In this document: positions 60,496-62,420 of the stretch, in pieces
Layout of the letters: each line of letters opens with the position of its first letter
Position numbering within the stretch: position 1 is the first letter of the stretch
NCBI RefSeq assembly: GCF_003991155.1
Contig: NZ_CP031293.1
DNA: 64,000 bases
Source: Escherichia coli
GTDB lineage: Bacteria > Pseudomonadota > Gammaproteobacteria > Enterobacterales > Enterobacteriaceae
Reading direction: 5' to 3' (one strand)
Position numbers and translations under genes: made by a program
The notes under the pieces: generated by a model
What the model saw: the letters and a program-made list of their open reading frames with translations, nothing else
Told to the model about the DNA's origin: nothing
The model's database searches: none

Positions 60496-61287
60496 TCACG
60501 CCCGGCGCATTACCGTCTGGTACAGTAAACTATCCAGTTCCTTAACGTCCCCTTCTCTGCTATCCGGTAACACTGGTGGAGTTTCCCCGCGCGCCAGCTC
60601 CGCGCGAATAAACGCATGTAACAAAGGACGACGCGGACCATATTCCGCCTCCCCCGCTCGCTGTTTACGCTCCAGCAGTTCGTCTATTTCTACGCGTAAC
60701 GGCGCATCAAGCTCGCTTCCCGCCAGTAACTCGGAAAAGCGCATTGGCGGCACGCCTTTTCCCGCTTCAACCCAGCGTACGGCCAGCAGCGGACGCAGCA
60801 CGTAAAAGTATTTTTTCAGTCGAACTTCATCGCCCTGCAAATAGCCGCGGAAGTTTTTCTGCGCCATCGAATAGTAATGCCAGCGTGCACGCAACGAAGA
60901 AAACCACATTGGGACCATTGCCTTAAGCGCCGTTATCGTTTCTTCATCTTGTTGATAGACCACCGGAGAATCCAGCCATTCTATCAGCGTCGGATTCGCG
61001 CCTTTCAATAATCCCAGCGCCTTACGCCACTCCCAACCGGAAACATCTAATTCGTCGTCGATGGGCAGCTCGATAACATCGCGCGGTGACTCTACACGCA
61101 GATACCATTCCAGCGGATGGACATACAAAAACCGTACATCGTAGTCGCTATCGGGCGAGGCAAATCCCCAGCCGCGGCTGCCTGATTCGCAGGCGTACAG
61201 CACTTTCACGCCATAGAGACGTTCTATTTCTTTTAACTGCTGCGATACCCGTTCGCGCATCGCAGCACTGACTCCATTTAATGGCAT
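60496..61287 (-). CDS. Nucleotidyltransferase-fold protein (predicted NTase)
   Basis: Motif YACESGSRGWGFASPDSDYDVRF (G[SG]...D.D minimal NTase signature); likely ATG at 61287 with AGGGTGA RBS, alternative GTG at 61296 overlapping the upstream stop. Confidence 0.75.
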   Translation of the reverse strand: MPLNGVSAAMRERVSQQLKEIERLYGVKVLYACESGSRGWGFASPDSDYDVRFLYVHPLEWYLRVESPRDVIELPIDDELDVSGWEWRKALGLLKGANPTLIEWLDSPVVYQQDEETITALKAMVPMWFSSLRARWHYYSMAQKNFRGYLQGDEVRLKKYFYVLRPLLAVRWVEAGKGVPPMRFSELLAGSELDAPLRVEIDELLERKQRAGEAEYGPRRPLLHAFIRAELARGETPPVLPDSREGDVKELDSLLYQTVMRRA

Positions 61288-61292
61288 GTTAC

Positions 61293-62420
61293 TCACCCTT
61301 TGATATTAACCAACCCATGCAGAACCTGATCCAGACCGCCAAATACAGAGATGTTATCGATCCGCTCAGCCACTCTCTCCAGCGTTTCCAGTTCTTTTAA
61401 GCGTAACGCCACCGGGTTGTTTTCCATGACTTTAGCGGTATTGAGTAACGAACGTGTCGCTGCCGTTTCTTCACGCCGACGAATCACATTCGCCTGCGCA
61501 GATTTCTCTGCCTCAACCAGCTGCGCGAGGATATTTTTCATATCACCAGGCAGGACGATATCTTTCACCCCTAATGAGGCAATCTCCATACCAAATGGCA
61601 ACATACGCGATTTAACCTGTTCGCTGACAACGTCATCAATGACCTGTTTATCTTCCAGCAACTCATCCAGCGTACGCGTACCTACCGCTTCACGCAGTGC
61701 AAATTGCAATTCCCGATACAAATGATCAATCGGCTTCGTTAACTGACTAAATGCCAATAACACGTCGCTGTAGCGCCAGTTGGCGGCGAGGTTAATCCGC
61801 AGATTGACCTTATCTTTCGTTAAGATTTCTTGCCCGCTGACTTCCAGTACCTGCAAGCGGGTGTCAACCACTTCAGCTTCAACCAGATGGTTAATTTTCC
61901 AGTACGCAGTCAGCCCCGGCGGTAACAGCGCCTGCGTTTCACCATCGATTTTCAGTACACCTACGTGCCAGGCCGGAACCTGCACCGTCAGTATCGCATC
62001 GCGGCCTTTAACTGCCCCTTTGCGCCGTGGCTGCAATACCGCATTCATCACCTCCGTTTGAACCTGGACTTGCTGCGTATTCATCCGCACCAGCGTCAAA
62101 TCATCCTCTACACGCCAGTACAAACGACGCGTTGATGGCGGCAGGATCTCCAGCAAAATACCGTCCATATACAACGCCCCGGCTTCAGTCTCCGACAAGT
62201 CGGCCACCACGCAATATCTTTCCACCCAATCAGGCTGAAAGCGGCGCAAATAATCCGCCAGCACGTCGGGAACTTCGCTGCCATCGAACGTAATCAGCAA
62301 GACTTCTGGCGTATTTAACCAGGGTAAAAGATGCTCGCCTGCATGCAGCACTTTGTAGTAATCGCCATTTCTGGAGAGTAATGCCAGCTGATCTTTTCTT
62401 ACGCTTATTTTCTTAATCAT
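61293..62420 (-). CDS. SPFH/band-7 (stomatin/prohibitin/flotillin/HflKC) domain protein, no N-terminal TM anchor
   Basis: 375 aa; C-terminal half has SPFH-like sequence features; N-terminal 180 aa unassigned and not hydrophobic. Confidence 0.75.
   Translation of the reverse strand: MIKKISVRKDQLALLSRNGDYYKVLHAGEHLLPWLNTPEVLLITFDGSEVPDVLADYLRRFQPDWVERYCVVADLSETEAGALYMDGILLEILPPSTRRLYWRVEDDLTLVRMNTQQVQVQTEVMNAVLQPRRKGAVKGRDAILTVQVPAWHVGVLKIDGETQALLPPGLTAYWKINHLVEAEVVDTRLQVLEVSGQEILTKDKVNLRINLAANWRYSDVLLAFSQLTKPIDHLYRELQFALREAVGTRTLDELLEDKQVIDDVVSEQVKSRMLPFGMEIASLGVKDIVLPGDMKNILAQLVEAEKSAQANVIRRREETAATRSLLNTAKVMENNPVALRLKELETLERVAERIDNISVFGGLDQVLHGLVNIKG

Follow-up and report, generated by a model that had tools for sequence, protein, structure and literature searches.

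In Escherichia coli, RtcR, RtcB and RtcA form a sigma-54-dependent, CARF-regulated system, and in Salmonella a second RtcR/sigma-54 RNA-repair operon (Rsr (Ro60)-YrlA/YrlB-RtcBA) co-transcribes a tRNA-like noncoding RNA with a ring-forming, RNA-binding scaffold protein. A further Rtc-type operon, in which a Band-7 (SPFH) protein and a predicted "band 7-associated tRNA", abbreviated b7a-tRNA, accompany RtcB and the nucleotidyltransferase RlaP, was put forward by Burroughs and Aravind in 2016; in the summary given by a 2018 preprint (bioRxiv 10.1101/312249), which covers the Band-7-containing Rtc operon, the b7a-tRNA is described as experimentally unvalidated. Here, we describe a two-gene locus, encoding an SPFH protein and an RlaP, in a 64,000-nucleotide stretch of E. 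coli contig NZ_CP031293.1 (assembly GCF_003991155.1), which in its full length is called the window below. The locus carries a predicted sigma-54 promoter and a structured leader RNA and represents a new, reduced form of this known, mostly computationally predicted system. We consider it probable that the pair is a reduced Rtc-type RNA-repair module that carries out damage-induced healing of RNA 3' ends, with ligation performed by the native RtcB.

Both genes lie on the minus strand, the SPFH gene first and the nucleotidyltransferase gene after it (Table 1). The RefSeq start of the latter is the ATG at 61287, 5 nt past the SPFH TGA and preceded by an AAGGG Shine-Dalgarno-like stretch; a GTG at 61296, overlapping the stop codon of SPFH, is an alternative start. 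The pair and the last gene of a phage-tail cluster converge. An earlier note on this DNA, made from its letters and open reading frames, had described a tightly coupled two-gene operon running opposite to the tail operon and composed of an SPFH protein with an extra N-terminal domain and no membrane anchor, followed by a Pol-beta-type nucleotidyltransferase. The operon and the protein classes were borne out: both reading frames, the convergent arrangement, a top 19-residue Kyte-Doolittle mean of 1.13, beta-repeats in the structural model of the N-terminal domain, and a conserved GS...DSDYD motif with a Pfam RlaP match were all found. The sigma-54 promoter and the structured RNA in the 5' region were overlooked there, and its remark that the pairing was not recognised as a named system, its placing of the pair with island cargo and its hypothesis of a defence function were not supported. 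An SPFH-RlaP association had already been described, in the Band-7 RNA-repair operons attributed to Burroughs and Aravind in the summary cited above.

The nature of the locus became apparent from the comparison of 80 loci encoding SPFH relatives 42-84% identical to the window protein, whose open reading frames were clustered and the clusters identified by NCBIfam. The usual gene order is rtcR (divergent), sigma-54 promoter, structured RNA, SPFH, rtcB, rlaP and sometimes rtcA; rtcR is present in 55 loci, SPFH in all 80, rtcB in 59, rlaP in 51 and rtcA in 21, and NCBIfam confirms the identity of RtcR (832 bits), RtcB and RtcA. The co-occurrence of the two genes thus extends outside the E. coli lineage, RlaP adjoining SPFH in 51 of the 80 loci; full-length SPFH relatives of 44-84% identity are encoded beside RtcR, RtcB, RlaP and RtcA. 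A ligase-less arrangement, rtcR<>SPFH-rlaP, is found in five enterobacterial genera. In Citrobacter, Pseudocitrobacter, Enterobacter, Kosakonia, Siccibacter and Pluralibacter the locus occupies one chromosomal site, rluF-yjbD ... rtcR<>SPFH-(rtcB)-rlaP-lysC. This synteny between yjbD and lysC across six genera indicates that the locus is ancestral at this site, and, since these genera carry rtcR (with or without rtcB) there, that Escherichia lost rtcR and rtcB. Most E. coli later lost the rest of the locus.

Compared with the full Band-7 operons, the window locus has orthologous SPFH and RlaP proteins and the same sigma-54 promoter, leader RNA and chromosomal site as the full operons of sister genera. 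Unlike them, it contains no RtcB, RtcA or RtcR genes, RtcB being encoded elsewhere in the E. coli genome, and its tRNA-like unit is cut down to a T-arm hairpin. With E. coli RtcR-RtcB-RtcA it shares the class of promoter, the presumed pathway and an activator paralogue whose DNA-binding end is nearly identical; the native rtcBA locus lies elsewhere in the chromosome and has no SPFH gene, RlaP or leader RNA. The Salmonella operon is a looser parallel, as the scaffold here is an SPFH protein rather than a TROVE/Ro60 protein and the RNA architecture is different; canonical b7a units give a sub-threshold match to YrlA, and the window has no Rfam YrlA match.

The predicted promoter is the sole match to TGGCACG-N4-TNGC in the 64-kb window, and the same sigma-54 element stands at the same place 5' of the SPFH gene in most related loci. 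In canonical loci rtcR, the gene for the sigma-54 activator, lies divergently upstream of it. In nine canonical enteric loci, TATC-N6-GATA and GAT-N6/7-GATAAA motifs occur 110-134 nt upstream of the promoter, beside the rtcR start codon, and the window holds such motifs at a matching distance, where RtcR may bind. In the E. coli locus rtcR is missing and yjbD takes its place. An alternative in which an insertion boundary at ~62814 separated the locus from native yjbD DNA containing the GATAA-rich stretch was ruled out by the motif distances and the synteny; this stretch appears to be the enhancer region, still retained, of what was the space between rtcR and SPFH in the ancestral locus. A native rtcR gene is present in 5425 of 5426 complete E. 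coli genomes, and the C-terminal, helix-turn-helix DNA-binding region of native E. coli RtcR is almost identical to that of the SPFH-linked RtcR paralogues. Because of this near-identity and the near-universal presence of rtcR, activation of the module promoter in trans by native RtcR is plausible.

Between promoter and genes lies an RNA that single-sequence tools failed to detect. Folding of the window upstream region alone was no better than that of shuffled sequences (z -0.7), ARAGORN at default settings and Rfam returned nothing there, and lowered ARAGORN thresholds gave poor, conflicting tRNA calls; the RNA was therefore established solely by comparison across loci. RNAalifold on 13 enteric sequences yielded a three-way junction and a T-arm, together comprising 27 pairs; compensatory changes are seen at 12 of them. 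In the enteric leaders 95% of the alignment cells are paired, as against 41-52% when the partners are slid, and none of 500 shuffles matched the observed value. For the leader core (hairpin and long arm) in 30 sequences from Enterobacterales, Pseudomonas, Burkholderiales and Rhodocyclales, the corresponding figures are 93.6% versus 39-57%, with a covariation score of 0.49 versus 0.10-0.16. A covariance model of the leader has one match in the window (62608-62714, 62.7 bits), a score that is not independent because the model had been trained on this sequence among others; ~10 loci that played no part in the training are matched as well. The model found no match in the native K-12 rtc locus or in cyanobacterial loci, and the leader matched no Rfam family. 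The conserved leader is a candidate new RNA family.

The RNA is also constrained within E. coli. An 86-nt core is identical between alleles whose genes diverge at a synonymous distance (dS) of 0.15-0.28, within an allele set spanning 0.15-0.41, the whole 5' leader differs at ~5 of ~190 nt, far below synonymous sites, and the RNA region accompanies the genes in 1631 of the 1631 complete E. coli genomes that have them. No terminator was found between the leader RNA and the genes in a terminator scan, from which we infer that they are co-transcribed.

Downstream of the three-way junction, the T-loop motif, a perfect one, has its only match in the window, where 0.09 would be expected by chance, and the pairs of the T-arm stem covary among enterics. 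Promoter and T-loop motif occur in the same order in most related loci. Non-enteric loci usually have two T-loops ~72 nt apart, as parts of one or two complete tRNA-like units; ARAGORN calls such units in 33 related loci, with inconsistent anticodons, and in Rfam they reach 56 and 44 bits as tRNA. These units of the canonical loci agree with the predicted b7a-tRNA as it is outlined in the summary (bioRxiv 10.1101/312249). In the E. coli upstream region no cloverleaf is left. The group of E. coli, Citrobacter and Phytobacter has lost ~17 nt that would form the 5' strand of a minihelix covarying in other enterics, so that all E. coli keeps is the 4-bp T-arm hairpin with a further hairpin behind it. 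For E. coli, an extended T-arm or minihelix, AAUUAUGGG/CCCGAAUU, was ruled out by two mismatches past the 4-bp stem. The hairpin that follows is tentative: it is also found in Citrobacter, Phytobacter and Pseudocitrobacter, with one compensatory change, and in a single-sequence fold it competes with an acceptor-like pairing to 62692-62698.

The tRNA-like units of non-enteric loci come as tandem pairs with variable "anticodons" and some 6-nt loops (for example loci L015:5540-5720 and L025:760-880 of our set), and in Rhodocyclales the first unit is a minihelix, with acceptor and T-arm only, bearing an encoded GCCA end. Past these units stand a conserved hairpin and a motif, (G)UACCCGCCGG, echoing CCCGCCGGUGC of the leader, and then ~250 nt of GC-rich leader up to the SPFH start. 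These features suggest that further structured RNA elements may be present in the non-enteric loci.

Sequence analysis of the second gene product identified it as an RlaP along its full length, with a Pfam PF10127 match over positions 1-248 of 249 (E 5e-96) and a match to PHROG 14344 (E 9e-121). RlaP, short for "RNA ligase-associating Pol-beta", was named by Burroughs and Aravind in 2016, as the citing literature has it. Two Pseudomonas enzymes, from P. fluorescens and P. aeruginosa, extend RNA 3'-OH ends by one or two nucleoside monophosphates, act preferentially on damaged RNAs and contribute to restoring the aminoacylation of over-trimmed tRNA (PMC12776372, a December 2025 preprint). The same work notes "three strictly conserved aspartic acids" in the family. 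The window protein belongs to the same Pfam family, full length, as the Pseudomonas and phage members (T4 NrdC.11, jumbo phages), with the GS motif and aspartates conserved, and is ~56-59% identical to the sampled Pseudomonas homologues and ~44% identical to the phage ones; G36-S37, D46, D48, D50 and D81 are kept in ~30 of 30 genuine RlaP homologues aligned. A PDB sequence search gave no match in a copy of the database that apparently does not hold the PfRlaP structure. The P. aeruginosa rtc locus also has an SPFH gene, PaFlo8 (PMC13086221). The window RlaP differs in having no adjoining ligase gene.

This absence of a ligase bears on a second way of viewing the module, as a regulatory accessory of the Rtc response in which the RNA, SPFH and RlaP would adjust signalling through RtcR, for instance by sequestration or end modification of the tRNA fragments to which its CARF domain responds. 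Damaged tRNA fragments are reported to activate RtcR (PMC7790460, PMC10159003), and the CARF domain to be bound by RtcA and RtcB (PMC9650030); the module retains pieces of tRNA-like RNA and a 3'-end-modifying enzyme without a ligase, a form that recurs in five other genera. However, co-operonic placement with RtcB and RtcA in most lineages fits a joint enzymatic pathway equally well, and RlaP improves the function of repaired tRNA in vitro (PMC12776372). We regard a regulatory role as quite unlikely.

The first gene product is named "slipin family protein" in RefSeq. Pfam Band_7 covers residues 147-318 (E 1.2e-23), and structure databases gave matches to stomatins (PDB 3bk6 by sequence, E 3.6e-22; human stomatin by Foldseek of the model, E 6.7e-16), with HflK/C and prohibitin also recovered by Foldseek. 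The AlphaFold model (mean predicted local distance difference test score 86) predicts, in the N-terminal part, two repeats built of a beta-meander plus a helix (residues 3-69 and 70-129), then a similar third unit running into the SPFH core (143-290), and at the C-terminus long helices (292-353); repeats 2 and 3 have detectable sequence similarity (z 5.3). No transmembrane segment was detected, the Kyte-Doolittle 19-residue maximum of 1.13 lying below the usual cut-off of 1.6. Since a first protein search was filled by near-identical Escherichia sequences, a library clustered at 50% identity was used for distant relatives; it holds 547 clusters with E < 1e-30, many of them aligned end to end, the N-terminal domain included.

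The SPFH core and C-terminal helical region are common to the membrane proteins HflK/C, QmcA and YqiK and to stomatin, and the fold, with a weak NCBIfam similarity to HflK/C, might suggest a classical membrane-microdomain or protease-modulating SPFH protein that happens to lie beside an unrelated nucleotidyltransferase. We find this extremely unlikely. Unlike HflK/C, QmcA and YqiK, the window protein has an extra N-terminal repeat domain and no membrane anchor; its scores of 30.4 bits for HflC and 27.5 for HflK lie far below the cut-offs of 134 and 159 (~30 bits against HflK/C cut-offs of 134-660); and its gene has no NfeD or FtsH partner, having a different conserved neighbourhood in which it is linked to Rtc genes and RlaP.

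The predicted domain order, a beta-repeat array followed by an SPFH-like "shoulder" and a long helix, is the same as that of the major vault protein (MVP) of eukaryotic vaults, and Foldseek aligned MVP full-length to the model over 420-490 columns with a TM-score of 0.40-0.42. Vaults (MVP with vault RNA) and the SPFH module are both soluble and both tied to a small structured RNA. When the SPFH N-terminal domain was tested alone the analogy was weak, and it was kept as an architectural resemblance only. A more ambitious version of the RNA-repair proposal, which we consider rather unlikely, is that the SPFH protein would enclose the co-transcribed leader and tRNA-like RNA in a ribonucleoprotein ring or cage resembling a vault and catch broken tRNAs for end-healing by RlaP; the leader would then be a new class of bacterial scaffold RNA and the E. 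coli module a minimal core acting with RtcB in trans.

Members of the SPFH family are also found outside the canonical operon. Cyanobacterial homologues (~44% identity; loci L072, L075, L077, L078, L081, L082 and L084) lack the leader RNA, and RtcR, RtcB and RlaP are missing within 6 kb of them. In the bee-gut bacteria Gilliamella and Snodgrassella (L033-L036, L042, L049), an SPFH protein with an extra N-terminal extension of ~150 aa is encoded beside RtcR and RtcB, in loci having no RlaP, T-loop motif or leader.

Of 5426 complete E. coli genomes, 1631 (~30%) have the pair together with its upstream region, among them strain 55989 (NC_011748.1). A 20.7-kb query spanning the tail cluster and the pair was matched over at least 80% in 120 genomes only; judging by genomes sampled at even intervals along the ranking, the tail cluster occurs in roughly 190-370 E. 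coli genomes, and ~1300-1450 have the pair without it. In the small-island form, which these remaining genomes have, the order is lysC, a convergent zeta-toxin-like P-loop gene, rlaP, SPFH and yjbD, and homology with the tail-cluster form begins at window position 60477. In sister genera lysC comes right after rlaP. The prevalence of the pair without the tail cluster, together with the six-genus synteny, indicates that the tail cluster was inserted next to a pre-existing locus; the tail cluster (~44752-60476) and the zeta-like gene are alternative insertions between rlaP and lysC. As none of the 80 related loci has the zeta-like gene, the junction of rlaP and lysC has the look of an insertion hotspot. 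E. coli genomes without the module keep TATC-N6-GATA upstream of yjbD at the empty lysC-yjbD site (L005:2840-2900, NZ_CP054345.1), which indicates that empty sites are deletions of the ancestral locus.

These data weigh on the hypothesis of the earlier note that the pair is cargo at the tail island's distal end, with a function in phage defence, abortive infection or toxin-immunity. In such a system, the nucleotidyltransferase would modify a target in phage or host, and SPFH would serve as sensor or scaffold. The note's broad theme of biological conflict was reasonable: the locus is accessory (30% of E. coli genomes) and adjoins a spot of varied insertions (zeta-toxin-like gene or tail cluster), RNA repair belongs to ribotoxin conflicts, and RlaP is present in jumbo phages, which use it (PMC7824862), at ~44% identity to the window protein. 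The specific proposal fared less well. The locus is ancestral and syntenic across Enterobacteriaceae rather than imported with the tail cluster; no PADLOC-DB 2.0 family matched SPFH, RlaP or either of two neighbouring proteins with an E value of 0.01 or less; and the SPFH gene occurs in none of 50,697 phage records and in no mobilisable plasmid, the only "plasmids" bearing it being chromids or mislabelled chromosomes. In place of a defence-gene neighbourhood, the conserved context is a stress-response RNA-repair operon with RtcR, RtcB and RtcA as partners, and no toxin-like component was identified. A defence function has, in our view, little likelihood.

The reduced state of the locus raises the question of whether it is a decaying, non-functional remnant of the ancestral operon on its way to being lost. 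The genes rtcR and rtcB and the full tRNA-like units are gone, the whole locus is deleted in 70% of E. coli genomes, and the loss of the local activator may have crippled expression. Against this, the module keeps its predicted sigma-54 promoter, enhancer-like motifs, covarying leader RNA, relic T-arm, SPFH and RlaP; both reading frames and the catalytic residues of RlaP are intact, and a protein-database search recovered full-length 375-aa SPFH proteins on thousands of contigs. Between E. coli alleles (dS 0.15-0.41) the ratio of non-synonymous to synonymous divergence (dN/dS) is 0.06-0.11 for SPFH and 0.06-0.10 for rlaP, and both genes are under strong purifying selection. We regard a dead remnant as very unlikely.

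None of the four rival explanations has specific support. The data presented above have led us to propose that the module acts in RNA repair as follows. RNA damage, such as the cutting of tRNA by ribotoxins or stress, would activate the RtcR remaining in the cell, and RtcR would fire the sigma-54 promoter of the module, whose transcript would yield the structured RNA, SPFH and RlaP. By analogy with the Pseudomonas enzymes, RlaP may extend the 3'-OH of trimmed RNA ends by one or two nucleotides. The soluble SPFH protein may oligomerise as other SPFH proteins do and provide a scaffold or cage for the RNA cofactor and broken substrates. Sealing would fall to the RtcB encoded in the native rtcBA operon, at another place in the genome.

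Several observations weigh against this proposal. The loss of the locus from 70% of E. coli genomes means that it is dispensable; the module has no ligase, cyclase or activator of its own; its tRNA-like unit is degenerate; and the promoter region of native rtcBA does not contain the same TATC-N6-GATA motif. The product end of RlaP is a 3'-OH, whereas RtcB needs a 3'-phosphate or cyclic phosphate, a mismatch flagged by the RlaP authors themselves (PMC12776372). Deletion of PaFlo8, the P. aeruginosa homologue within the rtc locus, gave no phenotype in general assays (PMC13086221), and the literature searched holds no experiment on the E. coli module, on an RNA-repair role of SPFH members or on the RNA.

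Table 1. Predicted and annotated elements of the SPFH-rlaP locus, in window positions
Feature	Position	Strand	Basis or remark
Putative enhancer (RtcR upstream activating sequence), TATC-N6-GATA overlapping GAT-N7-GATAAA	62831..62856	-	111-121 nt upstream of promoter
Predicted sigma-54-type promoter, TGGCACGCTTCTCGC, -24 GG / -12 GC	62721..62735	-	Motif and conservation
Predicted structured leader RNA, three-way junction	62624..62700	-	RNAalifold and covariation
Leader, outer stem	62696-62700 pairs with 62624-62628	-	
Leader, hairpin	62684-62690 pairs with 62672-62677	-	
Leader, long arm	62666-62671 pairs with 62629-62636; inner helix 62654-62659 with 62645-62650	-	
Relic tRNA T-arm, 4-bp stem and 7-nt loop UUCGAUU	62594..62608 (GGTTCGATTCC at 62596-62606)	-	T-loop motif match
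Tentative hairpin AUUCAUU-CCUGA-AAUGAAU, directly after T-arm	62574..62592	-	Read from sequence
Rest of operon 5' untranslated leader	62421..62573	-	Few differences between E. coli alleles
Soluble SPFH/stomatin-like ("slipin", Band-7) protein, 375 aa	61293..62420	-	Pfam Band_7, PDB, AlphaFold, Foldseek
RlaP-family nucleotidyltransferase, 263 aa (266 aa from GTG 61296)	60496..61287	-	Pfam PF10127, PHROG 14344
Strong intrinsic terminator closing the operon	60486..60508	-	Terminator scan: 10-bp stem, 8 G-C pairs, then T-run

The neighbouring tail island (~44752-60481, plus strand), sited between lysC and rlaP, encodes, besides a Mor activator, a holin and a lytic transglycosylase, all parts of a contractile tail (sheath and tube, tape measure, baseplate, fibre and fibre assembly), with no head, replication or integrase genes, a tailocin-like layout. 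In NZ_CP029747.1, a RefSeq genome 100% identical, the annotation marks the tape-measure gene, which has an internal stop, as a pseudogene. The final gene in the cluster (60026-60481, plus strand), convergent with rlaP, encodes a 151-aa protein that matches PHROG 1128 ("enoyl-CoA hydratase/carnithine racemase-like", moron category; E 8e-59) and had no match in NCBIfam or PADLOC; the terminator region is common to this gene and rlaP and may work in both directions.

The zeta-like gene is found in most E. coli genomes with the pair, with no antitoxin annotated beside it, and is absent from the window. Its 308-aa product (L003:3887-4813, NZ_CP027221.1) is a zeta-toxin/PezT-like P-loop protein (Pfam Zeta_toxin, E 1.8e-40) with an N-terminal extension of ~80 aa, encoded convergently with rlaP. 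It was considered as a third component of the module, a kinase, and ruled out on its convergent orientation and its absence from 80 of 80 related loci.

The locus corrects a tempting misreading as defence cargo at the end of a prophage-like island: it is the ancestral component, next to which the tail cluster arrived later. Since 2016, a part for SPFH/Band-7 proteins and their tRNA-like RNAs in the repair of bacterial RNA has stood as a computational prediction. As ~30% of E. coli strains carry a minimal form consisting of promoter, leader RNA, SPFH and RlaP, a genetically tractable system would be available in which to address the job of the SPFH scaffold and its RNA, the action of RlaP with RtcB in trans, and the wiring of the sigma-54/RtcR regulon across loci.

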